A model generated the notes under the pieces. It worked only from the letters and a program-made list of their open reading frames with translations, was not told the DNA's origin and did not search any database. From Candidatus Komeilibacteria bacterium RIFOXYD1_FULL_37_29 (lineage in GTDB: Bacteria; Patescibacteriota; Patescibacteriia; UBA1558; GWA2-36-10): a stretch of 64,000 bases of DNA. The position numbers were made by a program, and so were the translations under genes. The stretch covers positions 84,657 through 148,656 of the forward strand of contig MHKS01000004.1 of assembly GCA_001818495.1 (NCBI GenBank), given 5' to 3'. This document shows positions 899-46,816 of the stretch, piece by piece. Numbering within the stretch: position 1 is the stretch's first letter; each line of letters starts with the position of its first letter.

Positions 899-3800
899 AT
901 GGAATTTAAAAAACATAAATTAATCAGCCGCTTCCCTTATTTGGCGACCATTTTTAGCTTGCTGATGTTTTTGCCAAATAGGGTTTTGGCAGTGGACCCA
1001 TTTACTAGATTGATTGGCGACGCGATTTGGAGCTTTTTTGTCTATCCGATGATTTGGGCCTTACAACTAGAATTGGCCATATTGAAGTTAGTAGCCAGAT
1101 ACAATAATTTTACCAATGAAGGTGGAGTAATCTTGGGTTGGATAGCGCTACGCGATCTTTCCAATATGTTTTTTATTCTGATACTTTTGGTGATTGCTTT
1201 TGCCACAATACTTAGAATTTCCAGTTATGGTTATCAGCAACTATTAAAGCGCACACTGATTATTGCTATTTTGATAAACTTTTCCAAAACCATCGTTGGT
1301 TTTGTGATTGATATCGCTCAGATTGTTATGTTGACTTTTATCTCAGCGGTAGACGATATATTGACCGGCGGAGTAGTAGTGGCTATCGGACTTCAAAAAT
1401 TTACCACCATTAATATTTTGGGTGATGGCATGGATTATGCTGATTATATTACCTCTTTGGTCATGGGGGCTCTACTAGTGGCTATACTTTTAGTAGTTAT
1501 TGGTATTATGGTGATGATGCTGACGATGAGAATTATAGCTTTATGGGTAGCGATTATTTTAGCACCGCTAGCTTTTGTGGCTAGTATTTTTCCAGCCACC
1601 AACAGCTTTTATAACACCTGGATAAAGCAACTGGGTAGCAATTTGGTCTCTGGGCCGATGCTGGCGTTTTTTCTGTGGCTGACCTTTTCTATTGTGGGAA
1701 ATGGAGAGGCATATAAAAGTTTTATGGAATCGGGCACCACTCCGGGGGATGGAGCTACAGAATTTTTGGGTACTAGTAATTTGGTAAATTATATAGTAGC
1801 CATTTCTTTGCTACTGACGGGTATTAAAATAGCGGCTAGTTCGGGAGCCGCTGGAGCCAGTTTTGCGGCCAAAGGCATGGGACTGATGCAAAAAACAGCC
1901 GGTAAACTTTATAGGCGTTATCCAAAAGCCCTGGGTATGAGAGTAGCTTCTGGTGTAGCTGGTCGAGTTGTTGATAAGGATGGTAATTTGAGAACAGGTT
2001 TCAAGACGCTAGGTAAAATACCTTTTTATGGCGGTCGCTTACAAAGAGGAGCTATGAACGTTAAAGGTAGAAATGCTGCTAGAATAATGGAGGAAAAAGC
2101 TGAAGACGAAAAATATCTTTTGCCACAGCACAAGGTGGTCTATGAAAAAACCTATGGAGCGGGAGCTAGTAGTAAATTTAAAGTAGGAAAAATACCTTTG
2201 GGTAAAATATATTCCAAGGTGGGTTCTTGGGGAGGTGACAAGGAAAGAGAAGCTATGATGTATCAGAATATGTTGGCTCGCGGCGAAATTAATGTTGGCA
2301 ATGCCGATAAAGCCACCAACGCCTTGCGTGATCTTGGTGATGAAGCTGGTATGCAAAAAATACAATCCCAATATTGGACCTTTAAAGATAAGGCAGAAGC
2401 CAAACGTTTGATAGAAAAGGGAGGATTGGGGACTGTATTGGATAGTGTAAAAACAGATAATCTTAGAGAAAAGGTTATAGATCCAAAAACAGGCAAGGTC
2501 GAAATGGAAAAATATATAGACCCAGCAACCGGTGAAACCAAGGAAAGAGAAAAAATTCGAGTAAAAGAGTCTACCCAATATGCTTTGGAAGCCATTGCTA
2601 ATCCGGAGCATGGACAGGCAGATCACAATACTATAGCCAAGTATATTTTGAAGTGGAGCAAAGAAGACAGGGGTACTTTGATGACTATTGTTAAAGATAG
2701 TTTTGATTTTGCTAAGCATTTTACAGGAGAAACGTTGGATTCAAAAGATGGTTATCAGCCAGACAAAAGAAACTTTATTCCATCTAGGTTATCAAACGAA
2801 GCTGTGATGTGGGCTCAGGTGACAGGAAAGATTTACCCTCAAATGTTGGGGGATGAGTTTGGTGATGATGGTAAATTGAAGCTATTTGGTGCAGATAGGT
2901 ATTATCATGCAGCTGGTTACCGAGATTTAAAAGAGTCGTATGTAGTACCTGGCCAAATAGCTAGTAGATTGCAACAACAACACGGAGAAACCAATGTTCA
3001 ATTTAAGAAAAGAAAGCAACATGCTGAAGCCCTTGATGTTGTAAAATTAGACGATGCCAGCACCTTACATCAAGCATTGCGAGGACGTTATGTGACTAAA
3101 GATGCGAGTGGTAAAGATGTCATTGATAAAGAGAAATTCGTTGAATATAGGCAAAAGATGTATAGGCAGATATTGAATTTAGATGCTTATACAGAAAATT
3201 TACAAGGTAAGAAGCGATCTGATTTTCACAATAATGATCATATCTATAATAATAATTTAACCATTGCTGAACAAGCAGAGCAATTGGCTAGAAAATATGT
3301 AGCTCCAGAAACAGCTCGCGGAGATTTAATAATTCAAAAAGACAATCCGGCCAAAGAAGGAGAACCAGATTATGAAGTTAGGAAATTACATAGAGGTAAT
3401 TTTGCTACTCAAACAGCTTATGCTGATTATCTTGATAATTTGCAAAGAGCTACCAGAGAAATAGAGAAAATATTGGCTATTAAAATGGAAGATGTTGATA
3501 AAGATTTTGATGATAAATTTGGTGAAGGTGCTTTTGAAAGAGAAAAAAGAAGGATGGTAGCAGAAGTGGTTGATGATAAGCGAACAGCTCATGATTTAGT
3601 ATCCAAGAGTATCTGGGGAGAAGTTCAAGATGGAGCGCCTGGGGAAAGACTGGCAGAAGTAAATACTGGTAATATTCATGAAGCAGTTATGCTTGATCAT
3701 GCTCTTGATTCATCTGAAAATCAGCAACAAGCTCAAGCATTTAAAGTAACTACCCCTGAGCAGACGCAATATATAGTAGATAAACTAGCCGAGCTTGGTA

Positions 3801-4270
3801 AACAGCCCCAGAAGATATTATTAGAAAATATCCCAAAGGTTCTAGCGGCTGAGGCTATGCAGAAATTTAATGATGTCAAGGCTCTACAAGCTGGTGTCTT
3901 GCCTCAGGACTTGTTGTTATTGGGAGCTGATTTGAGAAAAATATCGGTAGTTTTAAAAACTATGGCCAATCAACAAAACATGACGGTTTCTCAGATATTA
4001 AAAAAAGATAAGGCTTTAGAGGGGTATATAACAAGTTTGCAAAAGATACATGAGAATAACACAAATATTAATCAAGGCATGCTGGTGATAGATAATGCAC
4101 CGCCAGGAGTCAACAGCCCAGAATTGGAAAAATTGATGGAAGAAGCAGATATTGAAGGTGTACAAAGTGCTGGTTATTTGGTTAATGGAGTGGTGCAAAA
4201 AAAAGTGAAAGCTGAAGTGGATAAAAAAACTAAGGGATCTTCAGAAGATAGCGACAAAGAAAAAACCTAG
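899..4270 (+). CDS. VirB6/TrbL-like polytopic membrane protein with ~800 aa charged C-terminal extension
   Basis: N-terminal signal-like segment followed by about 7 hydrophobic helices in the first 330 aa, a TrbL/VirB6-like topology. The rest is a long Lys/Glu/Asp-rich hydrophilic tail. Assignment is by topology and by the VirB4 cluster lying 5 kb downstream; there is no sequence-level proof. Confidence 0.4.
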   Translation: MEFKKHKLISRFPYLATIFSLLMFLPNRVLAVDPFTRLIGDAIWSFFVYPMIWALQLELAILKLVARYNNFTNEGGVILGWIALRDLSNMFFILILLVIAFATILRISSYGYQQLLKRTLIIAILINFSKTIVGFVIDIAQIVMLTFISAVDDILTGGVVVAIGLQKFTTINILGDGMDYADYITSLVMGALLVAILLVVIGIMVMMLTMRIIALWVAIILAPLAFVASIFPATNSFYNTWIKQLGSNLVSGPMLAFFLWLTFSIVGNGEAYKSFMESGTTPGDGATEFLGTSNLVNYIVAISLLLTGIKIAASSGAAGASFAAKGMGLMQKTAGKLYRRYPKALGMRVASGVAGRVVDKDGNLRTGFKTLGKIPFYGGRLQRGAMNVKGRNAARIMEEKAEDEKYLLPQHKVVYEKTYGAGASSKFKVGKIPLGKIYSKVGSWGGDKEREAMMYQNMLARGEINVGNADKATNALRDLGDEAGMQKIQSQYWTFKDKAEAKRLIEKGGLGTVLDSVKTDNLREKVIDPKTGKVEMEKYIDPATGETKEREKIRVKESTQYALEAIANPEHGQADHNTIAKYILKWSKEDRGTLMTIVKDSFDFAKHFTGETLDSKDGYQPDKRNFIPSRLSNEAVMWAQVTGKIYPQMLGDEFGDDGKLKLFGADRYYHAAGYRDLKESYVVPGQIASRLQQQHGETNVQFKKRKQHAEALDVVKLDDASTLHQALRGRYVTKDASGKDVIDKEKFVEYRQKMYRQILNLDAYTENLQGKKRSDFHNNDHIYNNNLTIAEQAEQLARKYVAPETARGDLIIQKDNPAKEGEPDYEVRKLHRGNFATQTAYADYLDNLQRATREIEKILAIKMEDVDKDFDDKFGEGAFEREKRRMVAEVVDDKRTAHDLVSKSIWGEVQDGAPGERLAEVNTGNIHEAVMLDHALDSSENQQQAQAFKVTTPEQTQYIVDKLAELGKQPQKILLENIPKVLAAEAMQKFNDVKALQAGVLPQDLLLLGADLRKISVVLKTMANQQNMTVSQILKKDKALEGYITSLQKIHENNTNINQGMLVIDNAPPGVNSPELEKLMEEADIEGVQSAGYLVNGVVQKKVKAEVDKKTKGSSEDSDKEKT

Positions 4271-4351: not shown

Positions 4352-5608
4352 ATGATGCCAAAAAATCTTTGGTTACAATTTCCGGAAGAGATAATGTTTT
4401 TTATCGCTAATGAAGTTGAACAGCTAGTTTATGATATAGCTGCTAAATTTGAATTGTCCGGCGAACAAGAAATGTATATCTTTGATCTAGCCGATGATAT
4501 TTTTTTGAAAAAAATCAGCATTTTGGATTTGCCTAATTATTTGGATAAAATACCCCAGGCCAAGGGAGTGGATGTGCGGCTTTTGGCACTGGACTTGGCT
4601 TATAAGGTCTTTTGGCCACTACAGGATTATTTAGGAGGAGTGGATCGTTTGATTTTACGTTTGGGCGGCAAGGTACCTAGACAAAAGACCCTGCAGGCCG
4701 GCTCTAAAGATGATAATAAGCTTTTTAATGGTACTGAGCAAAGTACTGTCAGTAAAATGTTGGAGCGTTATAAAAATTTTGCTAGTTTACGGCTCACGGC
4801 TAATAAAATTGTAAATAAAGCGGGGCACATAGTGCCGCCCATAGTGGCAAATTGGATTGAAGATTATGTACATTTTTTGGGAGCAGGAAACCACAATTCT
4901 TTAAAAAGAGCTCAATATCTTTCTAAAGCAGCCAATGCTTTAAAAGTGAGCGAAAAAGAAAGAGAAAGATTGCGTTATTTTTTTGTTTCTTATGATGAAA
5001 ATTCCCTAGTATTTTTTCATCTTGATCAAGGTATATTGATGGTTGAGGAAATACAGGAACAGGAAAAAACACCAGTAGCCGAAAATGCTAGTATAGACAT
5101 TTCCCAGACTTTGGATAATTTTTATCAAAATTTACGGTCTTTAGATAATAAAATAGTTTCCGCCAATATTATTATGTCTGAAGCTGAAAATAATCCCAAT
5201 AAAGTCCGAGATATTCTGTGGCAGGCCATGGGTATTGGTGATAAAGACAAAGCTTTGGGCTGTCTACGTGTTTTGATAACCAAAAAATCTTTTGATCAAA
5301 TGATCAAAGAGGATAGTCGTTTTAAAAATATTTTAAAGAGATTTATTGGTGTCAAATACGGTCAAAATATGGAACGGGCTTTGGATGAAAATATAGATCA
5401 GCTGATAGTTAGGCGTATTTTTTTGGAGATGATTTTATCCGAAAAATTAAGATTATCAGAGGAGGATGCTTATAGTACGGCTTTTTATCTGACCAATATT
5501 ATACCCGGTTCTGGACAGGTAGTTTATCTAGATAAGAGGAGTAAGGCATTTAGGTGGTTAGAAATTCAGGTGGTGGCCAATAAATTTTCTTGGGTTGATA
5601 AAATATAA
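4352..5608 (+). CDS. Hypothetical cytoplasmic protein
   Basis: Long ORF with no recognisable motifs and a host-like composition. Confidence 0.45.
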   Translation: MMPKNLWLQFPEEIMFFIANEVEQLVYDIAAKFELSGEQEMYIFDLADDIFLKKISILDLPNYLDKIPQAKGVDVRLLALDLAYKVFWPLQDYLGGVDRLILRLGGKVPRQKTLQAGSKDDNKLFNGTEQSTVSKMLERYKNFASLRLTANKIVNKAGHIVPPIVANWIEDYVHFLGAGNHNSLKRAQYLSKAANALKVSEKERERLRYFFVSYDENSLVFFHLDQGILMVEEIQEQEKTPVAENASIDISQTLDNFYQNLRSLDNKIVSANIIMSEAENNPNKVRDILWQAMGIGDKDKALGCLRVLITKKSFDQMIKEDSRFKNILKRFIGVKYGQNMERALDENIDQLIVRRIFLEMILSEKLRLSEEDAYSTAFYLTNIIPGSGQVVYLDKRSKAFRWLEIQVVANKFSWVDKI

Positions 5609-9019: not shown

Positions 9020-10363
9020 ATGGACTTTGCAAATAATACAACCGTTAATATTTTAGATAACGACAACTGGTCTTCTTCGCTTTTGGTCAAAGATGAAAAG
9101 GGTAATTTGACTTACCTCAAAAATAAAGCACCCCAGATCAAGCTTGGCCCAGAGTCGCAAATTGATGTAGTTTCTGAAGGTGATTTAGCACCTCGGGATG
9201 CTTCTTTTATTTCACTGCCCAATATTTACGGCTCTTCTTCGGATAAAGCAGAACTTGTTTTTCATCCGCACGACAAGCAGGAGTTGGATTTTTTTGCTAA
9301 AAATGTACCACTAGATGATAGTAAAAAATATAGTATAGAAAAAATTGTGGCTCGCATTATTGCCAAGCAAGAGTTGGATTTTGATGAGAAAAATGCCAAA
9401 CTTTTTACTAATATTTTATACAATTTTTTCCGAAGTAGAAAAAGTGCGGCTATCGTGAGAGAGCTTTTGAGTAAAAATGTTTCATTGAAAAATAAACCAC
9501 TAGCGGGAGAAAATTTAGATACCATATTGTCTGTTATTAAAGTTATAAAAAATAAAATTGACTTGGCTGGGGGATTGGTAGTCAATCAAGCAGAATTAGC
9601 CCTTAAACAGGAGACAAGTGTTAAGTTGGAAATACCGACCATCAAAATAGAGGAAACAAACAATAACCAAAAATCAGCTCAAGACGAGATCAAAGATATG
9701 TTAAAAGGCGCTTTGCCAAAAGTAGAAGCCAAAATTATTGAAACAACAGTTGAGGACAAAAGTAAGATAAAGGATAAACAGGGAGTTCAACCAGCGGCTG
9801 GATTTTCTATTCCGGCGGGGTCAAAGGAACTTGATAAAAAACCGATTGTTAGTAACCCAAAGACCGATATAGTGGCTAGTAATAAAATTTTGGAGATTAA
9901 ACTAGATAGTCCGGAAGAAAAAATAGATATATCTTTACCCAAAGTATCTAGACCGGGTATTTCGCAAACTCCTAGGCGGTCTATGAGCGATGTTTTTACG
10001 CCAGCCAAAGAAGACGCTTCTTTTCTATCCAGGGCAACTTTAATGGGGCCAGTACAAGAATTGCAATCTTTTGATTTAATTGCTTTTCGTCGTTTGGGAA
10101 ATACTGCTGAAGAAAGAGTCCAAAAAGTGTTTGATCGGATAAATTTATTAGAGCAGGATTCTTATACTAAAAAAGCTCAAGGCATTGCTGCTTGGAGAGA
10201 GAGTGGTGTTTATAAATTATATCTTAAGCTAGGAGCAGATAGCATGATTGCTGGTCGGCAAGTGGCTGATTATATAGCAGACAAAGCAAATAAAAACGAA
10301 GATACTTTGAGTGTAGCCGAATTTTCAGCTATTTCTGATTTAAATAAGCAATTGAGGTTTTAA
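9020..10363 (+). CDS. Hypothetical protein, first gene of the T4SS-like cluster
   Basis: 447 aa hydrophilic, no TM helices and no recognisable motif. Its stop is 3 nt before the PrgI-like gene. Confidence 0.45.
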   Translation: MDFANNTTVNILDNDNWSSSLLVKDEKGNLTYLKNKAPQIKLGPESQIDVVSEGDLAPRDASFISLPNIYGSSSDKAELVFHPHDKQELDFFAKNVPLDDSKKYSIEKIVARIIAKQELDFDEKNAKLFTNILYNFFRSRKSAAIVRELLSKNVSLKNKPLAGENLDTILSVIKVIKNKIDLAGGLVVNQAELALKQETSVKLEIPTIKIEETNNNQKSAQDEIKDMLKGALPKVEAKIIETTVEDKSKIKDKQGVQPAAGFSIPAGSKELDKKPIVSNPKTDIVASNKILEIKLDSPEEKIDISLPKVSRPGISQTPRRSMSDVFTPAKEDASFLSRATLMGPVQELQSFDLIAFRRLGNTAEERVQKVFDRINLLEQDSYTKKAQGIAAWRESGVYKLYLKLGADSMIAGRQVADYIADKANKNEDTLSVAEFSAISDLNKQLRF

Positions 10364-10366
10364 GCT

Positions 10367-10849
10367 ATGCCAGAAAGATTTATTGTTCCACAATTTATCG
10401 ATACAGAAGACAAGATTTGGGGGCCGATTACAGTCCGACAATTTGTGATTATTCTAGCGGGCTTGCTTTTTGGGTTTATTGCCTACAAACTTTCTGATTT
10501 TTCTTTATTTATTTTTTGGGTAATTTTTATTGCATTTTTTGTGGGCGTTTTTGCTTTTTATAAAGTCAATGGAGCACCTTTTCATACTTTTGCTCTAAAT
10601 TTTATTGACAGTACTTTTAAAAAGCCGGCGCTGAGAGTTTGGCATAAAGAATACATTAAAGTACAGGAATTTAAATCCAAGAAAGAAAACCAAAACCCAC
10701 AAGTTTCCATAGCTCATAAACAAATGGTTTCTAGTCGGAAATTATCAGAATTATCTTTGATTATTGATACCGGTGGAGTTTACAAAGGAGAAAAACAAGC
10801 CAATGAAGAGCACTGGGTTGGTTTTTCAAATAAAAAAATTAATGATTAG
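10367..10849 (+). CDS. PrgI/VirB3-like small two-TM T4SS protein
   Basis: The N-terminus FIVPQFIDTEDKIWGPITVRQFVIIL is followed by two adjacent TM helices, a PrgI-family pattern. It sits immediately upstream of VirB4. Confidence 0.45.
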   Translation: MPERFIVPQFIDTEDKIWGPITVRQFVIILAGLLFGFIAYKLSDFSLFIFWVIFIAFFVGVFAFYKVNGAPFHTFALNFIDSTFKKPALRVWHKEYIKVQEFKSKKENQNPQVSIAHKQMVSSRKLSELSLIIDTGGVYKGEKQANEEHWVGFSNKKIND

Positions 10850-10851
10850 TC

Positions 10852-11532
10852 ATGAAAAATAAAAAATTAGCTGGTAATAAAGTGGCCACCTCTACTCAGA
10901 AATATTTGGATATTGCCGAAATCCGTGATAATTTGGTGGTTTTAAATGATGGTGCCGTCCGCGGTGTTTTATTGGTTTCTTCTATAAATTTTGATTTAAA
11001 ATCAGAGGACGAGCAGCGAGCTATTATCAGCAATTATGTTGGTTTCTTAAATACTTTAGACTATCCATTGCAAGTGATTATACAATCTCGACCTTTAAAT
11101 ATTGATGAGTATTTAGACAGATTGAAGAGAAAAGAAAGAGAGCAGACCAATGAATTATTGCGTATGCAAACGGCTGATTATCGCGGTTTTGTCCAAGAGC
11201 TTCTAACTCTAGAAAGTATTATGAGTAAAAAGTTTTATATAGTAGTTCCCTATAGTCAGGTCAGTGATAAACGTCGGGGATTTATTAGTCGTTTTGCTTC
11301 AGTTTTTTCTTCGGCCAAAGTTGTCACTTTAAGTCGTAAGCGTTTCGAAGAGTTTAGTGAACAGCTAGATAAACGTTGTAATTTTATTGGTAGTGGTTTA
11401 TCTGGGCTAGGACTAAGAAGCCAGCGTTTGAGTACACAGGCTTTAATTGAACTTTATTATAATAGTTATAATCCTGATATATTTCAAAAACAACCAATGG
11501 AGGATATAAATAAATTAACCGTTGAAACATAA
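10852..11532 (+). CDS. virB4: VirB4-like protein, N-terminal domain encoded as a separate ORF
   Basis: YLDIAEIRDNLVVLNDGAVRGVLLVSSINFDLKSEDEQ...QVIIQS resembles the N-terminal region of monoderm VirB4/TcpF/PrgJ proteins. The stop TAA overlaps the next ATG (TAATG). Confidence 0.5.
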   Translation: MKNKKLAGNKVATSTQKYLDIAEIRDNLVVLNDGAVRGVLLVSSINFDLKSEDEQRAIISNYVGFLNTLDYPLQVIIQSRPLNIDEYLDRLKRKEREQTNELLRMQTADYRGFVQELLTLESIMSKKFYIVVPYSQVSDKRRGFISRFASVFSSAKVVTLSRKRFEEFSEQLDKRCNFIGSGLSGLGLRSQRLSTQALIELYYNSYNPDIFQKQPMEDINKLTVET

Positions 11533-13454
11533 TGTTTGGTTTTAATAAAATAAAACAAGCCGAGCAAAAGACCAAAGGAGATAAGGATTTGGAAAAATTT
11601 GCTAGTGCTGAGCGGCGGGTTTTGTCTCAAACAGAGGTGATCGCTAGAGAAAAACAGCTGATCGAAGCAGAAAAAGTTTTTAGAGAAGGTATTGTTTCGG
11701 TTAGAGATATTGTAGCTCCTTCCGCTCTGAAAATTGATCCGAGGTTTTTACAGCTCAATGATTTTTATGTCCGGACTTTGTTTGTGATGACTTATCCGCG
11801 TTATGTTACTATTGGTTGGTTTGCACCGATTATCAATGAAAGTTTGACTCTGGATATCTCCATGTTTTTTTATCCTTTGGATATAAAATTGGTTTTAAAA
11901 CAGTTGAAAAATAAAGTTGGTACTATGCAGGCGCAGATTATTGCTGATCACGAAAAAGGTGCACCACGTGATCCGATTTCCGAAACAGCCCTTCAGGATA
12001 TCGAGGCGCTTCGGGACGGCTTGAGTCAGGGTACCGAAAAGTTTTTTCAATTTGCTCTCTATATTACTATTTATGCCAAAACTTTGGATGAACTAGATCT
12101 AGCCAGTGATCGTATTGAAAATTTATTGGGTATACAGCTTATTTATTCTCGTCGAGCTTTATTTCAGGCCGAACAGGGTTTTAATTCTACTCTGCCTTTG
12201 GGTAATGATGAGCTGAGTATTTCTACCAACATGAACAGCTCGCCAATCGCTTCGTCATTTCCTTTTGTCTCTTCCGAGCTGACTTCCGATGACGGAATTT
12301 TGTATGGTATCAATCGGCACAACAATAGTTTGATATTATTTGATCGTTTTTCTTTACAAAATGCCAACATGGTAGTGTTTGCTACTTCTGGTGCTGGTAA
12401 AAGCTATGCTATTAAATTGGAAGTGCTGAGGTCTATGATGTTGGGTACGGATGTTATTATTATTGACCCAGAAAATGAATACCAGCATCTGTCTGAGGCG
12501 GTTGGTGGTGCTTATATCAATGTATCTTTAAATTCTGAGAGCAAACTTAATCCTTTTGATCTGCCCAAGGGTTTTGGTGGCGATAGTAAGCCGGAAGATA
12601 TTATCAGAAGCGCTATTATTACTCTCAAAGGTTTGATCCGACTGATGATTGGTGATATTACCAACGGGGAAGATTCGCTGTTGGATCGGGCTATTTTAGA
12701 AACTTATGCTAAAAAAGATATTACGCCAGCTAGTGATTTGAATAATATTGAACCGCCGATTATGTCTGATTTGGAAGAGGTTTTGATCAGTATGGAAGGT
12801 GGGGAAGATATGGCCTTAAGAATTAAAAAATATACCGAAGGTACTTTTTCGGGGTTATTTAATAGTCCAACCAATATTAAAGTGGATAATCAATTGGTGG
12901 TATTTTGTATTCGGGACCTGGAAGATGAGCTTCGTCCGATTGCCATGTACATGATTATGACACATATCTGGAATATTATCAGAAGCGAATTGAAGCGCCG
13001 AATACTGGTAGTCGATGAGGCCTGGATTATGATGCGCCATGAAGATAGTGCCAAATTTATGTATGCTTTGGTGAAGCGTTGTCGTAAATATTATCTAGGA
13101 GTTACTACTATTACCCAAGATGTTAATGACTTTTTAACTTCTACTTATGGCAATGCTATTGTGACCAACTGCGCTTTACAACTTCTCTTAAAGCAGACTC
13201 CAGCCGCAGTCAATCTAGTTCAGAAGACATTTATGTTGACGGAAGGAGAAAAGTATCTACTGCTAGAAGCTGGATTAGGAGAGGGTATATTTTTTGCCGG
13301 AGCCAAACATGCGGCTATCAAGGTGCAAGCTTCTTATGCCGAGCATCAGATTATTACCTCAGACCCTCGTCAGTTGATAGAAATAGAAGAGGCCAAAAAA
13401 GAATTTGAAGAACAAATGATGGCCGAAGCAGAAAAAAATCCTAATCAAGTTTAG
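11532..13454 (+). CDS. virB4: VirB4/TraC/CagE-family T4SS ATPase (C-terminal two-thirds)
   Basis: Walker A VVFATSGAGKSY and Walker B ILVVDEAWIMM (the DEAW box typical of VirB4). The central domain shows the FYVRTLFVMTYPRYV pattern. Confidence 0.8.
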   Translation: MFGFNKIKQAEQKTKGDKDLEKFASAERRVLSQTEVIAREKQLIEAEKVFREGIVSVRDIVAPSALKIDPRFLQLNDFYVRTLFVMTYPRYVTIGWFAPIINESLTLDISMFFYPLDIKLVLKQLKNKVGTMQAQIIADHEKGAPRDPISETALQDIEALRDGLSQGTEKFFQFALYITIYAKTLDELDLASDRIENLLGIQLIYSRRALFQAEQGFNSTLPLGNDELSISTNMNSSPIASSFPFVSSELTSDDGILYGINRHNNSLILFDRFSLQNANMVVFATSGAGKSYAIKLEVLRSMMLGTDVIIIDPENEYQHLSEAVGGAYINVSLNSESKLNPFDLPKGFGGDSKPEDIIRSAIITLKGLIRLMIGDITNGEDSLLDRAILETYAKKDITPASDLNNIEPPIMSDLEEVLISMEGGEDMALRIKKYTEGTFSGLFNSPTNIKVDNQLVVFCIRDLEDELRPIAMYMIMTHIWNIIRSELKRRILVVDEAWIMMRHEDSAKFMYALVKRCRKYYLGVTTITQDVNDFLTSTYGNAIVTNCALQLLLKQTPAAVNLVQKTFMLTEGEKYLLLEAGLGEGIFFAGAKHAAIKVQASYAEHQIITSDPRQLIEIEEAKKEFEEQMMAEAEKNPNQV

Positions 13455-13492
13455 TTTTAAAGAAAAAATATTAGATAAGTTAATTTAAAAAT

Positions 13493-14047
13493 ATGGACGC
13501 TAAAAGAAAAAAAATACTTCTTATTCTAGCTGTACTCGTAGTATTGATCATACTTTTTTTAATCTGGATACTAAAAACTTCTGATCAAGGGCCGATGGGT
13601 AATGAAAACACCAATACTCCGCCGCCGGTTTTTAAAGCACCGAGTGTCAATTTGGAGTATAAAGATTCCGTAGAGGTCAAACAGACTTCTACCGAGTTTT
13701 CCGTGATTAATTTAGCCAAGACTTATGCGGCTAGATTTGGCTCTTGGTCCACCGATAATCAGGGAGCCAATCTCAACGAACTTTTGCCTCTTAGCACTGA
13801 AAAGATGAGGCAATACATTGCTAGTATTGATTTGGATTTTTCACCACAAGAGTTTCGAGGCAATACCACCAAAAGTATTAGCGCCAAAATAATCAGTTTA
13901 GACGAAAACAGTGCGGAGGTATTGGTCAATACTCAGAAAATAGAAACTAAGGCCAATTTGGAAGAGTCGGTCTACTATCAAGAAGCGACTGTCAAGATGA
14001 TTAAATCGGGTGATGTTTGGTTGGTTGATGAATTTATTTGGCAATAA
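13493..14047 (+). CDS. N-terminally membrane-anchored protein, possible VirB8-like component
   Basis: A single N-terminal TM helix then a soluble domain of about 150 aa. The size and topology are VirB8-like. The assignment is speculative. Confidence 0.3.
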   Translation: MDAKRKKILLILAVLVVLIILFLIWILKTSDQGPMGNENTNTPPPVFKAPSVNLEYKDSVEVKQTSTEFSVINLAKTYAARFGSWSTDNQGANLNELLPLSTEKMRQYIASIDLDFSPQEFRGNTTKSISAKIISLDENSAEVLVNTQKIETKANLEESVYYQEATVKMIKSGDVWLVDEFIWQ

Positions 14048-14050
14048 TTT

Positions 14051-14536
14051 TTGTTTATGGCTCTTGATTTAGCATTAAATCCGGAAGATTTAGGAGACGA
14101 CTTCGAAGACGAGGGCGAAGATTTTAATGATGAACTTTCTGAGGCTGGACAAAAAGAGGCTCAGCGTAATTTAGAAAGGATAAAAAAGCAAGTTAAAGAC
14201 AAAATCAAGAAACAGGTTCAGAAGGTAGCTAAGAAAATAGCTAGCAAAGTAACTGTTCGGGTAGTTTCTCTGGCTTGTGGAGCTACGGGTGTTGGACTTA
14301 TTGTTACTTATATTATTTGGACCGGGCAAGCCATCATTGCCAATTGGTTAGGCAAAGACAAAATTATACCAAAATTGGATTGGTGGGAGCTGGTTTTATG
14401 GGGCATTTTAACACTATTATTATTATTTCTCTTAGTAATTTTATTAGCTTTTTTAATAGTAGGTGCGGCTATTAGTAATCCAGTACTGGGGGTAACAATA
14501 CTTGGAGCTGTAGTTTGGAATTGGATCACCAGTTAG
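14051..14536 (+). CDS. Membrane protein with acidic N-terminus and two or three TM helices
   Basis: Asp/Glu-rich start, Lys-rich helix, then hydrophobic helices. No motif. Confidence 0.4.
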   Translation: MFMALDLALNPEDLGDDFEDEGEDFNDELSEAGQKEAQRNLERIKKQVKDKIKKQVQKVAKKIASKVTVRVVSLACGATGVGLIVTYIIWTGQAIIANWLGKDKIIPKLDWWELVLWGILTLLLLFLLVILLAFLIVGAAISNPVLGVTILGAVVWNWITS

Positions 14537-14553
14537 TATAAATAATATACATT

Positions 14554-15774
14554 ATGGATAAGAAAAAGATTTTTTTGGTCATCGGGTTTATTGTTCTAGT
14601 TTTGGGACTGGGCTTGGCTTTGTATTGGGTGTTTTTTAAACCAACTATTCCAATTACTCCAACAGATAATTTTAACGCTGGGAATTTGCCGGGGATTGGT
14701 AATGGCAATATACCGATTGTCAATGAAAATATCAATGCTCCTGACCAAGGATTGCCCTGGCAACAATATATTAAAGACAAAGTTTCCGATGTAGCCAGTG
14801 GCGGACTGACCAAGGTGTCAGAGGTTTCTGAAAATGAAGTCAGAGGGCTAACTAGTAGTCCCGGTGGTTTGCAATATTATGATGATAATGAACAAAAGTT
14901 TTATCGCATTACCGATAGTGGTACAGTAGAAGAATTGAGTAGCCAATTGTTTTATCAAGTAGAGGATGTGACCTGGGCTGGTAGCGGAGATAAGGCCATT
15001 TTGGAATATCCGGACGGATCAAATATTTTGTATAATTTTAAAAACGGCCAACAAGTGACCTTACCCAAAGAATTGGAAGATTTTTCTTTTGATGCTTCTG
15101 ATAGCCAAATTGCCGCCAAATGGATGGGCTCTAGTGAAGAGGATAACTGGGTGGTAGCATCCAATGATGATGGCTCGGGTATGTATCTTATCCAACCTTT
15201 GGGCGATCAAGCACATAATACTTTTGTCAGTTTTTCTCCAGATAATCAGGTAGCCGTCATGCATAGAAAATATGTGGACGCTCAAAGGCAAGAGGTTTAT
15301 CCTATTGGCTTACACGGCGAGACTTTTAAGGCTTTTACAGTGGCTGGCGCTGGTTTTGAATATGATTGGTCACCAGAGGGCAATAGTCTGGTTTATAGCG
15401 TTTATAATGAAACTAGTAATTACAATCCCAATCTTTGGGTGACCAATGGCAGTAGCAGTGAGTTGGGTGATATCAAAGTATCCTTAAATATTTCTACCTG
15501 GCCAGATAAATGCGCTTTTGTCGGTGAAGATATTATGTATTGCGCTGTACCTCAGGGATTGCCACGCGGTGCCGGACTTTATCCGGAAATAGCCGATCGT
15601 TATCCTGATAATTTCTATTATATCAACTTAAATTCCGGCTCTAAAAATTTGATTGCCAGTCCGGTTGGGGAGAGTGGTAGCTATACAGCCCATAATCTTT
15701 TTGTATCAAACGACCAATCAACCCTATATTTTACCGATCAGAACGGAAATTTACAAAGTATTAAATTAAAATAA
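14554..15774 (+). CDS. Membrane-anchored TolB-like (PD40 beta-propeller) protein
   Basis: N-terminal TM helix. PD40-like repeats are present (YPDGSNILYNF, FSPDNQVAVMH, WSPEGNSLVYSV). Confidence 0.5.
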   Translation: MDKKKIFLVIGFIVLVLGLGLALYWVFFKPTIPITPTDNFNAGNLPGIGNGNIPIVNENINAPDQGLPWQQYIKDKVSDVASGGLTKVSEVSENEVRGLTSSPGGLQYYDDNEQKFYRITDSGTVEELSSQLFYQVEDVTWAGSGDKAILEYPDGSNILYNFKNGQQVTLPKELEDFSFDASDSQIAAKWMGSSEEDNWVVASNDDGSGMYLIQPLGDQAHNTFVSFSPDNQVAVMHRKYVDAQRQEVYPIGLHGETFKAFTVAGAGFEYDWSPEGNSLVYSVYNETSNYNPNLWVTNGSSSELGDIKVSLNISTWPDKCAFVGEDIMYCAVPQGLPRGAGLYPEIADRYPDNFYYINLNSGSKNLIASPVGESGSYTAHNLFVSNDQSTLYFTDQNGNLQSIKLK

Positions 15775-15781
15775 TAATATT

Positions 15782-16549
15782 ATGAAAAATAAACGTTCAA
15801 TTATCTGGGGATCTTTACTACTATTATTTTTAATTTTTCCAGTCTTAGTTAACGCGATTGATGTAACCTATACACCAAATGTACCGATACCGATTAGGAT
15901 TGGTTCTTATGATTTTGGTGGAACAAATATAGTTGGTCCAGATTTTTTGGCTAGCTATATTGTGGCTATTTATACTTATGGAGCAGGTTTTGCCGGCATT
16001 GTAGCCATGTTTATGCTGGTGATTGCCGGTTGGCGTTGGCTTTTTGCCGCTGGTAATGCTAGTAAAATTGCCGCTGCCAAGGACACGGTCAATGGAGTCT
16101 TGGTTGGTTTGGCCTTACTTTTTGGCGGGCAATTGTTGCTTAGGCAAATTAGTGAGAATTTTAGCTCAATTCAAAGTTTGAAAGTCCAATTGCCAGAAGC
16201 AGCTCTCAATGCTATTTCTGCTAATAAGGCTAATGAGGATTTTTGTGCTAGTAGTGGCGAAGGATCTACTACAACAACTCCCAAAAGAGTTGAAGATTGT
16301 GAGGAATATAAAGATCCAACGCAATGTCTTACTGATACTTGTAATTTAATTGCCATTGGTGATTTTGATGACCGTTGTGTACCATTATTTAATAGGTCCA
16401 ATAATAGTTTTACCGGTTGTTCCGATTGTCCCAATACTTGTAGTTGCGATATATATATTAATGAGTTCTATAGAAATGCTGATCCTTGTGATTGTGATGA
16501 GGATAGCAAGTGGGTAGATGATAAATGTGAAGTTGTAGAGAATAACTAA
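15782..16549 (+). CDS. VirB2/TrbC-like T4SS pilin with cysteine-rich C-terminal domain
   Basis: A signal peptide (…VLVNA) is followed by two hydrophobic helices separated by a short charged loop (GNASKIAAAKD), the VirB2 topology. The last ~110 aa contain about 20 Cys. Confidence 0.45.
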   Translation: MKNKRSIIWGSLLLLFLIFPVLVNAIDVTYTPNVPIPIRIGSYDFGGTNIVGPDFLASYIVAIYTYGAGFAGIVAMFMLVIAGWRWLFAAGNASKIAAAKDTVNGVLVGLALLFGGQLLLRQISENFSSIQSLKVQLPEAALNAISANKANEDFCASSGEGSTTTTPKRVEDCEEYKDPTQCLTDTCNLIAIGDFDDRCVPLFNRSNNSFTGCSDCPNTCSCDIYINEFYRNADPCDCDEDSKWVDDKCEVVENN

Positions 16550-19577: not shown

Positions 19578-19665
19578 GGAGAGTTGGCAGAGTGGTTGAA
19601 TGCGGCGGTCTTGAAAACCGTTGAGCCGAAAGGTTCCGAGGGTTCGAATCCTTCACTCTCCGCCA
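19578..19665 (+). tRNA. tRNA-Ser (anticodon TGA), long variable arm
   Basis: Cloverleaf folded by hand. Acceptor GGAGAGT/ACTCTCC, anticodon loop CTTGAAA, variable arm TGAGCCGAAAGGTTCC, T-loop TTCGAAT, CCA encoded. Confidence 0.85.
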
Positions 19666-19741
19666 GTCCTCGTAGCTCAATGGATAGAGCGTTTGGTTGC
19701 GGTCCAAAAGGTTGCAGGTTCGATTCCTGCCGGGGACGCCA
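19666..19741 (+). tRNA. tRNA-Arg (anticodon reads GCG)
   Basis: Begins immediately after tRNA-Ser. Acceptor GTCCTCG/CGGGGAC with one G-U pair, anticodon stem TTTGG/CCAAA, loop TTGCGGT, T-loop TTCGATT, CCA encoded. Confidence 0.65.
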
Positions 19742-19755
19742 TTTATTTAATTTTT

Positions 19756-19846
19756 GGAGAGGTGCCTGAGTGGTTGAAAGGGGCACCCTGCTAAGGTGTT
19801 ACTCCGTTTTTCGGGGTCGAGGGTTCGAATCCCTCCCTCTCCGCCA
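19756..19846 (+). tRNA. tRNA-Ser (anticodon GCT), long variable arm
   Basis: Acceptor GGAGAGG/CCTCTCC, anticodon loop CTGCTAA, long variable arm, T-loop TTCGAAT, CCA encoded. Confidence 0.85.
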
Positions 19847-26016: not shown

Positions 26017-28470
26017 ATGTTTAAAAGAATTAGTAATTGGCAACTATCTTTCATAATAGCCATTGTATCAATCTGTAGTCTAGTGTTGATACAGCAATAT
26101 GTCATCGCTCAAAGTGGTTGGGTGGATCCAGATACTTTACCAGGTGTTACTCCTAGTAATGTTTTTGTGGTCAATCCTTTGGCCTCTGATTTGCAGTTAA
26201 ATAATCATAATATTTTAGGTAGTAATATGGTTATTGATGGTTCGGCCAATCTAAATGCGGTGACCCTAACTGGCGGTCGAAAGATCTGTTTGTCTGGTAC
26301 TTGTAGAGATACTTGGCCGGTAGTAACGGGCGGTATTACTGGTGGGGGAACAGTAGAGAAGATAGCAAAATTTACTGGTGCTAGCGCTATCGGAGATTCT
26401 ACCATCGAACACAGAGGTAATAGTATTTATGCATTTAATTCTGGTTTTAGTACTTCGGGTTTAATCTTGGGTGGAGGATCAGTAGATCCTCTACAAATAT
26501 ATGGTATGAATAATTTTAGTACTTCTAATCTTGTGTATTTGTCTATCTCTGGAGCCGCTGTGCCTTCAAGTGGAAATGCTATTAATATATTGAATGATGG
26601 CCATGGTAGTGGTTTAATTATTAATAATTCTAGAGCCACCAATATTAAAGAGGGTATTAATATAACTAATGGTGGTTTGGGTAATGGTTTAGTTGTCACC
26701 CAAAATAATCCGACTCCTGGTGCTGCCACTGGTCGACCTTTTCGTGTTAATGATGATAATGCTTCTGATAATACTCCTTTTGTTGTAGATTGGGAGGGTA
26801 AAGTTGGTATTGGAACGGTTAGTCCTAATAAGAATTTACACATTCAAACCGCTTCTGGCAATGCGGAAATAGATATTCAAAGTGGGGGAGTGTCTGGTAA
26901 TCATTGGGGTATTTATCATGATGCCGCTACTGATGACCTTTTCTTTTGGAAAGACGCAGCCAATCGGGTAGTTTTTACTGATAGCGGTAATATTAATTTA
27001 CAGGGATCAGTTTGTGATATTAATGGTGCTAATTGTTTTTCCGGTTCAACCAATTATTGGACTCAAGATGCTAGTTTAAACTTGTCTAGGACTAATAGTA
27101 ATGTTCACTTATTAGCTAGTGGACAAACTATGCCAGCGGCTCTAGCTTTATCTGGAACTAGAATGGTTTGGCATCCTACTAAAGCAGCTCTTAGAATTGG
27201 AGGAATTGGTGCCTCTGGGGCTACAAAATGGAGTGAGACCAACATTGGAAATTATTCACTTGTTTTTGGTCTAGATAGTAGAGCTAGTGGTCTTTACTCG
27301 GCAGTACTTAGTGGTAATGCCAATAATTCTGATGCTGAAGCTAGTGTTGTGGCTGGAGGTAGACAAAATCAGGTAGCCGCTTTTGCTTTGGAGGGTGCGG
27401 TAGTTGGTGGAGGAGCAAATCAGGTTAATGGTCAGGGTGGGTTTATTGGTGGTGGAAATCAAAACATAACCTCTGGTAGTTATTCAGTGCTCAGTGGAGG
27501 TATTAGTAATAGATTAATGGGTACAGGTAGTGTTATTGGTGGTGGTGGATGGAACATCGCAACAACTAGTTATTCTGTTATTGGTGGTGGCCAACAAAAT
27601 GGTGTCAATGGGCAACATGGAGTTGTTGGTGGCGGTTATTTAAACATAGTATCGTCAGCTCAAAGTACCATTAGTGGTGGTTGGAACAATAGTATTAGTG
27701 GTCCGATTGGAACCATCGGTGGCGGAAAGGATAATTTAATATTACTAGAAGGTCAATTAAGCACTATCGGGGGAGGTACAAGTAATAATATCAGCGCTGA
27801 TTATGTAGCTATAGCCGGCGGACAAAGTAATACTGTTAGTGGTGATTTTGGAGCCATTGGAGGTGGTAGTTTAAATAGTGTCAGTGGTATTTTTTCAGTT
27901 ATTCCTGGTGGTTCTGCTAATTTGGCAGCCGGCGATTATTCTTTAGCTGCTGGCAGACATATGGAATTATCAGCTACAGCAGACAATAGTTTTGTTTGGG
28001 GAACTTCTGATACGCCGGTTTCTATCACTAGGGACAATTCCTTTATAGTATTTCCAACTAATCCAACAGGTAGTCTTCCTAGATTAGGTATTGGTACTTC
28101 TGCTCCCAACAGCACTGTCCATATCAAATCAAATAGTGGTAATGCCGAAATAGACCTACAAAGTGGCTCTAGCCCTTATTGGGGTATTTATCAAGATGAT
28201 ACGACCGACGAACTTCGCTTCTGGAATAACGGAGTCAATAAAGTGATTTTCAAGAGTAATAGTTTGGGAGTAGTTAGTGATTCGGCTGATGGGGTGGATA
28301 ATTATATTCAATTGGATAAGGTAAATGCAGTACCCCCAGTAACTGATTGTGATGAGGTAGCAGAGGAGGGTAGAATGATTTGGAAAGCGGCGGGTTTTAA
28401 TAGATTGATGATTTGTGGATACGACAGTGTCAGTGGATTATATGGTTGGAGAACTCTTTTATCTTCCTAA
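26017..28470 (+). CDS. Large secreted surface protein with YadA-head-like (Hep_Hag-type) Gly/Asn repeats and an internally duplicated ~55-aa module
   Basis: Signal peptide. Long run of repeats of the form GG.N.[VI]SG..S.I.GG. The module NLHIQTASGNAEIDIQSGG...WGIYHD..TD.L.FW occurs twice (about aa 260 and 690). A terminator follows. Confidence 0.5.
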   Translation: MFKRISNWQLSFIIAIVSICSLVLIQQYVIAQSGWVDPDTLPGVTPSNVFVVNPLASDLQLNNHNILGSNMVIDGSANLNAVTLTGGRKICLSGTCRDTWPVVTGGITGGGTVEKIAKFTGASAIGDSTIEHRGNSIYAFNSGFSTSGLILGGGSVDPLQIYGMNNFSTSNLVYLSISGAAVPSSGNAINILNDGHGSGLIINNSRATNIKEGINITNGGLGNGLVVTQNNPTPGAATGRPFRVNDDNASDNTPFVVDWEGKVGIGTVSPNKNLHIQTASGNAEIDIQSGGVSGNHWGIYHDAATDDLFFWKDAANRVVFTDSGNINLQGSVCDINGANCFSGSTNYWTQDASLNLSRTNSNVHLLASGQTMPAALALSGTRMVWHPTKAALRIGGIGASGATKWSETNIGNYSLVFGLDSRASGLYSAVLSGNANNSDAEASVVAGGRQNQVAAFALEGAVVGGGANQVNGQGGFIGGGNQNITSGSYSVLSGGISNRLMGTGSVIGGGGWNIATTSYSVIGGGQQNGVNGQHGVVGGGYLNIVSSAQSTISGGWNNSISGPIGTIGGGKDNLILLEGQLSTIGGGTSNNISADYVAIAGGQSNTVSGDFGAIGGGSLNSVSGIFSVIPGGSANLAAGDYSLAAGRHMELSATADNSFVWGTSDTPVSITRDNSFIVFPTNPTGSLPRLGIGTSAPNSTVHIKSNSGNAEIDLQSGSSPYWGIYQDDTTDELRFWNNGVNKVIFKSNSLGVVSDSADGVDNYIQLDKVNAVPPVTDCDEVAEEGRMIWKAAGFNRLMICGYDSVSGLYGWRTLLSS

Positions 28471-28603: not shown

Positions 28604-30889
28604 ATGAAATCTGACTTTCATTTTCATTTCTATAGCCGGATATTTATCATGCTGATTTTGGCTGTGTCTTTATTTTTTATACAAAAATCAGTCAAGACCA
28701 CAGCGGAAATCACTTATCCTTATCAAGTAACTGGCTGGGCTTGGAACAATATAGCTCTTTGGTTTAGTTTGAATTGTGTTAATGATTTTGAAGTACCAGG
28801 CGTATATATTTCTACTTGTTCAGATATCCCGGGTGGTGTGGATTATGGTTTGCAAGTAGCTGCCGACGGTAACATCAGTGGTTGTATCTGGGCCGGTAAC
28901 AATGTCGGTGGCAGTGGTAGTGCTTTGGGTTGGGTGTGTTTTAATGACGTTTTTAGCGTTTTTAGAGCCACACCTAGTGATCTAGGAGTAGCTACTTCAT
29001 CGAAGTATTTAAATGCTATAGCCTCTACGACTTTTGCTAGTATACTTAGTTTTGAAGATTGGCGTTGTGTGGGTGGAACTATGAATGGTCAAAGGTGTGC
29101 TCCAAATACTGCTTTTTGTTCTGCTGCGGGCGGCACTTGCACTTTTACTGATGATGGCAAATGGAAACTTGGTTTTCCTATTATAGGGAGTGGAGAGCCT
29201 TGGGGTACAGACTTACCTAGCCCAGCCAATCCACTGCAGGGTTGTTTTAATTGTTATCAAGAATACAGCTACGCTTGTAGTATTGATGGTGGGTCGTGTG
29301 ATCCGAGTATTGGCTGTGGGGTAACTGGTACACCACCTACACCACAGGATTGTGTGGTTTCTTCGGTAGAAAATAAATGTGATAATTGTTTAGAATATTC
29401 TTATTATCCGGGTTTTTGCGAAGCCGCTGGTACAAAAAGTGTTACCATGGGTTGTGCTGATTTTGTTCATAATACGACCGATTGCTGTACTAGTAATAAT
29501 GATTGTGCCACCGGAGAAACTTGTCAAGCGGTCTCTTCTTGTGTTGCCATAACCAGCAATGAAAGAGAAGAATATACTTGTACGCAGAGCGAACCAGGCA
29601 ACTGCGTGCTCGTCCCGGAAGGTTGCGTAGATAGAACACTAGGCGCTTATAGAATGACTTTGGGCGGTTATGATTGTAGTAATTGTAATATTGAAAGTTA
29701 TGACAATCGTTGTTATTTAAATGCTGAAGAAGCCAATCTTAATAGTTGTGTCAGTTGTGCTAATATTTTTTATTATCCCGGAGTAATGATAGATCATAAA
29801 CATTACAATTTAGGAGCTGCCGAAATGGCTTATATGTGCGGCTGGGCTTGGAACGCGTGGGATGACAATAGCGACGGCAATCCAGACAACGGTTTGTACT
29901 GGTTTCAGTTTTCTCCTAGGATTGTTACTTCTACGCGCCCATTTTTGTCAGTAGAGAGCGGTAATATTTATTCCCAAAAAGGTATTAGTGGCGATTATTT
30001 GCCACCTTTTGGTCATTACAATTCTTCTTATTTGATTGAATCAGGGGGTAGTATTAGCAATTTTATTAGTTCCAGCACTTTGTCCGGTCTTTATCAAGGT
30101 GAAATACCTTATCAGCCGATTATTAGTTTTTTAAGACCAAATGCTAGTTTTAGTAAGTACAACAATGCTTTAGGTAGTATTGATTATGCTGGATTGATCG
30201 CTGATGTTGTTTCTGGGGCGGCCAATGTTAACAAATATGGATCAACTATCATTACTACTACCGGTATTACTCAGGCTGATGCCATGGTTTTTCTTAATGA
30301 TCTGAGTGATCCTTTGGAGTCAGAAAGTATGGTACATTATCATAACGATGATTTAAATATCAATACAGCTGCTTTTGTCCCGACACACACTATTTGGGCC
30401 GGTGATAATAATGAAAACGCTGCTAAAGTAGTGGTTGTTAATGGTGATTTATTGATTGGTGATAATTTTATTTATGAAAACGCTGCTAGCTATGGTAATT
30501 TTAAAAATATACCTTCTATAGTTTGGATTGTCAGGGGAGATTTATCTATTGATGCCGATGTCAACCAATTGGTTGGTACATTTATAGTTTTGGGTAATAC
30601 CAGTATTGCGGATTGTTCTTATGTATCTCCAGCCACACCAGCACCAAGTTGTGGGCAGATCATTACTTGTCTTGATACAAACATTGGCAATCCAGCGGAC
30701 TGTGATACTTCTTCATTAATTGTCCGTGGTAGTGCTTTGGCTAAATATTTTAATCTGAATAGGACTTTTATTGATGCATCTGATCCACGTCCATCAGAGC
30801 AGTTTATCAACGATGGTCGTTTACAGGTCAATCCACCGGCTGGTTTTAAAAATTTCTCCAATATTATTCCCAGATTTAGTGAGAATTAA
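28604..30889 (+). CDS. Large cysteine-rich secreted protein
   Basis: N-terminal TM/signal, more than 50 Cys, and a repeated GWAWN segment. No catalytic motif. Lies directly upstream of pilM. Confidence 0.5.
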   Translation: MKSDFHFHFYSRIFIMLILAVSLFFIQKSVKTTAEITYPYQVTGWAWNNIALWFSLNCVNDFEVPGVYISTCSDIPGGVDYGLQVAADGNISGCIWAGNNVGGSGSALGWVCFNDVFSVFRATPSDLGVATSSKYLNAIASTTFASILSFEDWRCVGGTMNGQRCAPNTAFCSAAGGTCTFTDDGKWKLGFPIIGSGEPWGTDLPSPANPLQGCFNCYQEYSYACSIDGGSCDPSIGCGVTGTPPTPQDCVVSSVENKCDNCLEYSYYPGFCEAAGTKSVTMGCADFVHNTTDCCTSNNDCATGETCQAVSSCVAITSNEREEYTCTQSEPGNCVLVPEGCVDRTLGAYRMTLGGYDCSNCNIESYDNRCYLNAEEANLNSCVSCANIFYYPGVMIDHKHYNLGAAEMAYMCGWAWNAWDDNSDGNPDNGLYWFQFSPRIVTSTRPFLSVESGNIYSQKGISGDYLPPFGHYNSSYLIESGGSISNFISSSTLSGLYQGEIPYQPIISFLRPNASFSKYNNALGSIDYAGLIADVVSGAANVNKYGSTIITTTGITQADAMVFLNDLSDPLESESMVHYHNDDLNINTAAFVPTHTIWAGDNNENAAKVVVVNGDLLIGDNFIYENAASYGNFKNIPSIVWIVRGDLSIDADVNQLVGTFIVLGNTSIADCSYVSPATPAPSCGQIITCLDTNIGNPADCDTSSLIVRGSALAKYFNLNRTFIDASDPRPSEQFINDGRLQVNPPAGFKNFSNIIPRFSEN

Positions 30890-43914: not shown

Positions 43915-46816
<2,902 letters not shown>

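Follow-up and report, generated by a model that had tools for sequence, protein, structure and literature searches.

The last gene of a type IV secretion system (T4SS) operon in Candidatus Komeilibacteria bacterium RIFOXYD1_FULL_37_29 encodes a pilin-like protein in which a two-helix hairpin is followed by a cysteine-rich C-terminal module. The gene lies in a stretch of 64,000 nucleotides (contig MHKS01000004.1), which is called the window below. We read the protein, with a probability of about 0.62, as a pilin-type subunit of a chromosomal T4SS of Patescibacteria (class ABY1, Komeilibacteria), the hairpin of which would pack into the machine while a disulfide-locked head would face the host envelope. 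The C-terminal appendage is not a one-off but one of many swappable heads in the clade, some of which are enzymes.

The gene and the parts of its product are as follows.
15782-16549, + strand: pilin-like gene, 255 amino acids plus stop, with hairpin and 12-Cys C-terminal module
15782-15856, + strand: predicted Sec signal peptide, residues 1-25, MKNKRSIIWGSLLLLFLIFPVLVNA, cleavage before I26 (sequence, -3/-1 rule)
15857-15946, + strand: mature N-terminal segment, residues 26-55, with a conserved Y-x-P-N-V-P-I-P motif (alignment of orthologues and relatives)
15947-16045, + strand: hydrophobic helix 1 of the hairpin, residues 56-88 (hydropathy; helix 55-88 in the AlphaFold2 model at a predicted local distance difference test score, pLDDT, of about 70-79; partly covered by the PF18895 match)
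16034-16084, + strand: basic loop region, residues 85-101 (R85, K95, K100), with the turn AAGN at 89-92 (sequence)
16058-16153, + strand: hydrophobic helix 2 of the hairpin, residues 93-124, GLALLFGGQLLLRQIS (hydropathy, AlphaFold2)
16154-16243, + strand: linker, residues 125-154, with a conserved QLPEAAL-AIS stretch (orthologues; AlphaFold2 helix of low confidence)
16244-16531, + strand: 12-Cys module, residues 155-250 (about 90-100 residues), ending in the acidic DPCDCDxD..W.D..C

The open reading frame (ORF) is real and uninterrupted, with an upstream stop just four codons before the ATG. An identical protein is recorded for 15 contigs (accessions OGY93593.1, OGY95746.1 and OGY97151.1; UniProt A0A1G2BWQ1), where OGY93593.1 is a protein of Candidatus Komeilibacteria RIFOXYC1_FULL_37_11 annotated as 'hypothetical'. 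One continuous frame is also kept in 13 orthologues that are 48-61% identical and come from independent assemblies. Because of these identical records and the continuous frame in the orthologues a frameshift artefact is excluded, and with it the concern that the C-terminal part would become a separate ORF after sequence correction. No further pilin paralogues were found in the window, where the next-best ORF has an E-value of 0.057.

The layout that the sequence-only reading had described, a signal peptide followed by two hydrophobic helices with a short basic loop, is borne out by sequence, hydropathy and AlphaFold2. The n-region of the signal peptide contains K2, K4 and R5 and is followed by a hydrophobic core and by 'VNA' ahead of I26, a predicted signal-peptidase site in which the Ala at position -1 is kept in the orthologues. 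In the Y-x-P-N-V-P-I-P motif P32, N33 and P35 are invariant in the 13 orthologues, and P32, I36 and P37 are nearly invariant in 41 relatives that share the hairpin. Hydropathy peaks at residues 63-81 and 102-120, and the model places helices at 55-88 and 93-126 on either side of a turn (89-92) that has R85, K95 and K100 around it. K95 and K100 are invariant among orthologues, and the positive-inside rule predicts a cytoplasmic position for the basic loop once the protein is in the membrane. The hairpin is strongly conserved, with 85% identity among orthologues and a mean column identity of 71% over 19 diverse members.

The Cys-dense C-terminal domain on the same polypeptide is genuine, conserved, probably disulfide-bonded and probably extracytoplasmic. 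It had been credited with about 20 Cys; there are exactly 12, at positions 155, 173, 182, 187, 199, 213, 216, 220, 222, 236, 238 and 249. The CxxC (C213-C216), CxC (C220-C222 and C236-C238) and CDCDED (236-241) patterns described earlier are all present. Twelve Cys in 101 residues compare with a frequency of 0.96% across 62 likely genes of the window (binomial P about 3e-10 per 101-residue stretch). All 12 are conserved in 11 of the 13 orthologues, and the stretch between C155 and C173 is variable and either acidic or rich in Ser/Thr. The pilin head is exceeded in Cys density by just one ORF of the window, which encodes a secreted-looking protein of 761 amino acids (28604-30889, + strand) with 36 Cys, 15 of them in one 101-residue stretch, and without Pfam match.

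The module recurs in related pilins and is rare: an exhaustive profile search of 1.84 billion cluster representatives gave just 10 proteins at E <= 1e-3. Four loci, each a pilin fusion, came from JGI metagenomes scanned for the module, and in the two with ORFs examined the module-bearing pilin lies between a g406-like gene and RecG. None of 22 bacterial and archaeal modules has a Pfam match, a PDB sequence profile search with the module gave no hits at E <= 10, and the module has no match to any described fold; the full-length AlphaFold2 model is too poor in this part to be of use (mean pLDDT 60). A calcium-binding reading of DPCDCDxD..D.DGC, as thrombospondin type 3 or EF-hand, was considered and found to be without Pfam support (EF-hand E 4.8, in one member).

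Six of the Cys (173, 182, 199, 213, 216 and 236) are invariant in all 22 modules. The others tend to be lost in pairs: 220 with 238 three times independently (P0013, P0049, P0046a), 222 with 249 in P0011 and P0046c, and 155 with 187 in the repeats P0046a-c. Since the Cys disappear in pairs, disulfide partners are favoured over metal sites with four ligands, and disulfides in the module are likely. The window also encodes a candidate oxidant of these cysteines, the gene of which is not linked to the operon.
48621-49391, + strand: membrane-anchored DsbA/MdbA-like thiol-disulfide oxidoreductase with a CPFC motif (Thioredoxin_4 4.7e-24, DSBA 4.6e-17)
This family has been reported, together with VKOR, as enriched in the Candidate Phyla Radiation (bioRxiv 10.1101/335083). 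The ORF directly 3' of it (49395-50207, + strand) looks by eye like a prolipoprotein diacylglyceryl transferase. The signal peptide, together with two membrane passes and the positive-inside rule, suggests that the module lies outside the cytoplasm.

The hairpin can be placed in a family through its relatives. Among the 41 relatives that share it, 28 match PF18895 (T4SS_pilin) at E <= 0.01, with a best E-value of 5.8e-10, and precomputed PF18895 matches exist for P0040, P0041 and P0043. The NCBIfam model NF045849, a pilin-like conjugal transfer protein of Mycoplasma integrative and conjugative elements (ICEs), matches 19 of the 41 with a best E-value of 1.7e-4; the window protein itself reaches E 0.25 with this model, which has a cut-off of 40 bits. 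The relative P0022 carries the NCBI name 'pilin'. Because the relatives match PF18895 and NF045849, and because of the gene context, the protein is assigned at family level to T4SS_pilin, and it is VirB2-like in layout and context. The relatives were obtained with the full-length query and the exhaustive profile search, and word-index searches with the C-terminal domain or the hairpin alone found essentially nothing. We attribute these near-empty results to the word index itself, since the full-length and profile searches did find relatives, and do not read them as absence.

Cys-rich extensions are the norm in the clade. All 43 relatives have 96-259 residues past helix 2 with 8-28 Cys, and almost no Cys ahead of helix 2. 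The site after g406, the gene next to the pilin gene, was compared in 27 related loci, two of which were fetched via homologues (plus a short duplicate of the first) and 25 of which are species-level loci from a scan of GTDB representatives. One pilin gene or a tandem pair occupies the site, and the complete pilins all have extensions of 105-279 residues that contain 8-34 Cys. The expectation that VirB2 pilins are about 100 amino acids long and have no extra domain fails in this clade.

The extensions are also exchanged between lineages, as they form at least ten clusters that are unconnected by BLAST. An M15/VanY (LdcB/VanXY-like) peptidase domain forms the head of the first pilin of a tandem pair in 12 loci; the ExWH motif is present in 12 of 12 such heads and SxHxxGxAxD in three. 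The M15-pilin loci are L003, L009, L010, L012-L015, L017, L020, L023 and L024, and a second, Cys-rich pilin follows in most. Within the orthologues of the window protein the hairpin is 85% identical as against 43% for the 12-Cys module, or 35% at its non-Cys positions. The part that would face the machine is nearly frozen and the putative outer part is fast-evolving or replaced, which is the pattern expected of a host-contact surface.

The pilin gene is the last of eight same-strand genes (9020-16549) that are separated by 3, 2, -1, 38, 3, 17 and 7 bases. The seven genes ahead of it are listed here.
9020-10363, + strand: g447, first gene of the operon, 447 amino acids, soluble, no Pfam match (Pfam, transmembrane analysis)
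10367-10849, + strand: PrgI family (VirB3-like) protein with two transmembrane segments (PF12666 E 7.7e-12)
10852-11532, + strand: TraC/TrsD-like protein, 226 amino acids, related to the N-terminal part of VirB4 (PF26593 match of orthologues)
11532-13454, + strand: VirB4-type ATPase, 640 amino acids (P-loop_TraG 1.2e-27, AAA_10 2e-12, weak CagE_TrbE_VirB)
13493-14047, + strand: g184, 184 amino acids, N-terminal transmembrane anchor and outside domain, conserved operon member
14051-14536, + strand: g161, membrane protein of 161 amino acids, charged N-terminus followed by at least two transmembrane segments, conserved operon member
14554-15774, + strand: g406, 406 amino acids, N-terminal transmembrane anchor and large outside domain (weak hint of a PD40 beta-propeller only)

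The order EF-P, g447, PrgI, TraC-like, VirB4, g184, g161, g406, pilin and RecG is found in all loci with enough flank. RecG converges from the opposite strand and ends three bases from the pilin gene, and g406 is always immediately 5' of the pilin gene or genes. VirB4 is 78-92% identical across the full-length related loci, and the TraC/TrsD-like protein, which has a weak TraC_F_IV match (E 0.013), is 69-85% identical across loci. The product of g447 was considered as a VirB6 and rejected, as it has no transmembrane segment. The operon matches the chromosomal, relaxase-less T4SS derived from the mating-pair formation (MPF) type MPF_FATA, with VirB2-like pilins, that has been described for Patescibacteria (PMC12102498); the dataset of that study includes GCA_001818445.1, of class ABY1. 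Several GTDB metagenome-assembled genomes (MAGs) in the comparison (L007-L009, L014, L015, L022-L024, L027, L029) are titled 'uncultured Gammaproteobacteria bacterium' and have a Patescibacteria-type T4SS operon in full synteny. These titles look like mislabelled taxonomy.

The same module occurs in DPANN archaea. Four matches that are not pilins of this kind (P0046 to P0049) have one to three tandem module copies at the C-terminal end, and the archaeal modules score 30-51 bits, whereas 500 composition-preserving shuffles of each stay below 9 bits. P0047 (MBU1201837.1, from a 'Nanoarchaeota archaeon' MAG) starts with MMKKG followed by EISLLV. Its contig (L004) has about 14 consecutive ORFs that start with [KR][KR]G and a hydrophobic stretch, as well as a gene for an RPA-type replication protein, and the locus of P0049 (L038) is syntenic with it. 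By this motif they resemble class III (type IV pilin-like) leaders of archaea; the Pfam models for class III signals and pilins gave no match for ten of these ORFs. The cluster of about 14 KKG-type leader genes (L004 1700-15000, and L038) includes four Cys-containing ORFs of 89-102 amino acids, and it is followed by a protein of 1174 or 791 amino acids with an SLT lytic transglycosylase domain and then by the RPA-like gene. Like the window protein, the DPANN carriers have the homologous Cys module, in which the six invariant Cys and the DPCDCD motif are kept; it is placed C-terminally on a protein with a pilin-like hydrophobic N-terminus in a cluster of putative filament-type genes. They differ in that the N-terminus is a single type IV pilin-type helix and not a VirB2-like hairpin, in that the module is often present in two or three tandem copies behind a large middle region, and in belonging to another domain of life.

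A mechanism can be proposed from these data. The protein would be exported by Sec, its signal peptide cut after Ala25, and it would be inserted as a helical hairpin with both ends outside and the basic loop in the cytoplasm. The module would then lie outside the membrane and would probably be locked by six disulfides made by the MdbA/DsbA-like oxidoreductase; paired loss suggests C220-C238, C222-C249 and C155-C187, and the other three would be formed among the six invariant Cys. The conserved hairpin would be the part built into the machine, where it could form a pilus polymer, a channel or a stalk. The fast-evolving, lineage-swapped head would be the working end that meets the host cell envelope, here probably as a binding module, and in sister lineages the equivalent position is taken by other Cys-rich heads or by an M15/VanY-type peptidoglycan peptidase. 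The head had been considered an adhesin-like novelty. The Cys-rich appendage is genuine and an adhesin role is plausible, but it is not unique, being one of many swappable heads.

Several results weigh against a pilin-type subunit. The window protein matches PF18895 at residues 69-114 with only 17.8 bits (E 0.0035), below the gathering cut-off of 26.6. It had been called a VirB2/TrbC pilin, and a search of the N-terminal part with the Pfam TrbC/VirB2 profile PF04956 strictly fails (E 8.2, 7.2 bits). When 41 mature hairpins were compared with eight VirB2/TrbC proteins by hhalign, 19 columns of helix 2 aligned at a probability of 2.3% (E-value 0.021), which barely improves on the reversed control (E 0.095). 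The eight proteins were annotated plasmid sequences (L030-L037; MPF_T) translated from database records; an Agrobacterium VirB2 bait, which matched annotated virB2 at 99.2%, served only for retrieval and the database sequences were used in hhalign. A PDB profile search with the hairpin gave no hits at E <= 10, and Foldseek found nothing with the full-length AlphaFold2 model, which is poor (mean pLDDT 60). Homology to canonical TrbC/VirB2 is not demonstrable by PF04956, hhalign or the PDB profile, and the VirB2/TrbC identity reduces to a hairpin of T4SS pilin type encoded among T4SS genes, in an operon where neither VirB6 nor VirD4 could be recognised. Packing on a VirB2-type filament may be hard for subunits that each carry a head of about 130 residues, as estimated from published F-pilus geometry. 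Monoderm T4SSs are generally without pili (PMC12102498, PMC12857230), and this lineage is not known to make them.

Some of these points suit another reading, in which the hairpin is a mere membrane anchor or a static channel subunit of the T4SS that forms no pilus and positions the Cys-rich head immediately beyond the membrane or wall, much as Gram-positive T4SSs have accessory proteins and hydrolases anchored in the membrane. The general lack of pili in monoderm systems, the fact that neither pilus-forming VirB2 nor any PDB chain is detectably similar and the awkwardness of a large head in a tightly packed filament all agree with it, and the M15/VanY variants resemble anchored wall hydrolases. 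It is nevertheless considered rather unlikely, since the hairpin is the best-conserved part of the protein (85% in orthologues, 71% over family columns), which is rare for simple anchors and points to specific packing contacts. Pfam and NCBI also call the family pilin, and in archaea the module is carried by proteins that resemble filament subunits.

C-terminal trimming is established for P-type pilins, and RP4 TrbC loses C-terminal residues ahead of cyclisation. With this precedent the C-terminal part could be a pro-region or cargo that is cleaved in maturation, leaving a short pilin and a released Cys-rich factor, or an M15 enzyme in sister lineages, and both the linker (125-154) and the variable C155-C173 stretch could be accessible to a protease. 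The operon genes scanned include no TraF-like maturation peptidase, the linker holds the conserved QLPEAAL-AIS motif and no recognisable cleavage site, and the tandem C-terminal modules of the archaeal proteins suit a retained surface domain, all of which make cleavage a very doubtful explanation. A metal-binding or redox domain, with Zn or Fe-S clusters held by the Cys, appears still more improbable. CxxC and CxC are common metal ligands and DPCDCDxD is acidic, but the predicted location is extracytoplasmic, the Cys are lost in consistent pairs and not in sets of four, no His is conserved alongside them, no metal-binding Pfam family matches, and the window encodes a membrane-anchored DsbA-like oxidoreductase. 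A pilin-type subunit with a disulfide-locked head is the preferred reading.

VirB2-like pilins near virB4 have been published for Patescibacteria (PMC12102498, PMC10633639, PMC12857230). Southlakia epibionticum ML1 has an essential six-gene pilin array and TM7x has an array that is Sec-secreted (PMC12102498, PMC10633639, PMC12857230); the essential role in S. epibionticum is reported in PMC10633639 and PMC12857230. These pilins share PF18895 with the present ones at the level of relatives, are likewise chromosomal beside a VirB4/PrgI/TrsD-like cluster and have a signal peptide and a two-helix hairpin. In contrast to the Patescibacteria arrays of 2-11 genes, the pilin gene here is single (a pair in sister lineages) and its place at the 3' end of the operon is fixed, and every member of the present clade bears a Cys-rich or enzymatic C-terminal domain of 105-279 residues. 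Patescibacteria VirB2-like pilins were thus already known, and relative to PMC12102498, PMC10633639 and PMC12857230 their swapped Cys-rich or enzymatic C-terminal heads are new. C-terminal domains on these pilins, pilin-M15 fusions, the 12-Cys module and its DPANN occurrence are unmentioned in the three studies, and domain-architecture databases may list the fusions implicitly.

The canonical VirB2/TrbC/TraA pilins (PF04956; MPF_T, MPF_F) are alike in having a signal peptide, two hydrophobic helices, a short basic loop and an operon with VirB4. Going by pilus structures, both termini are expected at the outer face. The present proteins differ from them in that no sequence relationship is demonstrable, the host is monoderm, a large C-terminal domain replaces the short tail and no cyclisation machinery is evident. 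Of the NCBIfam models, the one for the pilin-like protein of Mycoplasma ICEs (NF045849, Mbov_0395 family) fits the hairpin best in 19 of the 41 relatives, and its origin in monoderm ICEs fits the reported MPF_FATA ancestry of the Patescibacteria T4SS. The scores are weak, and the model has 80 positions that cover the hairpin and not the Cys-rich domain.

The sister M15 variants can be compared with the peptidoglycan hydrolases of T4SSs (VirB1 and those of Gram-positive systems), as they too are wall-active enzymes (M15/VanY, LdcB-like) that are membrane-tethered and encoded in the T4SS operon. They differ in that the anchor is the pilin hairpin and that the enzyme, in place of a lytic transglycosylase or CHAP, is of the D-Ala-D-Ala or LD-carboxypeptidase type. 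An enzyme domain is absent from the window protein. Many Patescibacteria genomes lack a recognisable VirB1 (PMC12102498), and the M15/VanY heads may supply wall cutting where it is missing.

The window encodes a type IV pilus system besides the T4SS, because PilM (9.2e-45), two further N_methyl pilins and a PilX_N minor pilin are present (30969-32186, 39464-39925, 42529-43233 and 43915-44799, all on the + strand). In the same region a protein of 403 amino acids (41298-42509, + strand) combines a type IV prepilin N-methylation leader (N_methyl E 4.4e-4) with a C-terminal Hint/intein-like module (Hint 1.2e-6, PT-HINT 8.8e-6), and such a fusion of type IV pilin and Hint is unusual. Large ORFs without Pfam match are found at 899-4270 (1123 amino acids), 4352-5608 (418 amino acids) and 26017-28470 (817 amino acids), all on the + strand. 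Housekeeping RNAs are a tmRNA at 56466-56850 (- strand, 122.7 bits) and a tRNA-Ser/Arg/Ser cluster at 19578-19846 (+ strand).

The T4SS and its pilins are essential to the epibiotic life of the one genetically tractable Patescibacterium. A conserved hairpin with lineage-specific heads, some of them probably binding modules and some probably wall-cutting enzymes, offers concrete candidates for host recognition and wall penetration, and the wall-cutting heads may bear on the lack of a recognisable VirB1 in many of these genomes. The module is a newly defined, unannotated domain of about 90 residues with a testable disulfide map, and its link to DPANN pilin-like proteins points to cross-domain sharing of attachment modules among ultra-small symbionts. 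We tentatively suggest, as a possibility only, that the system is a modular display scaffold: a near-invariant VirB2-like hairpin on a filament or stalk would carry interchangeable heads (12-Cys, other Cys-rich, M15) that set the action on the host envelope, and the 12-Cys head would have been exchanged across domains of life. If this is true, ultra-small bacterial and archaeal symbionts share a pool of filament-borne host-contact modules.

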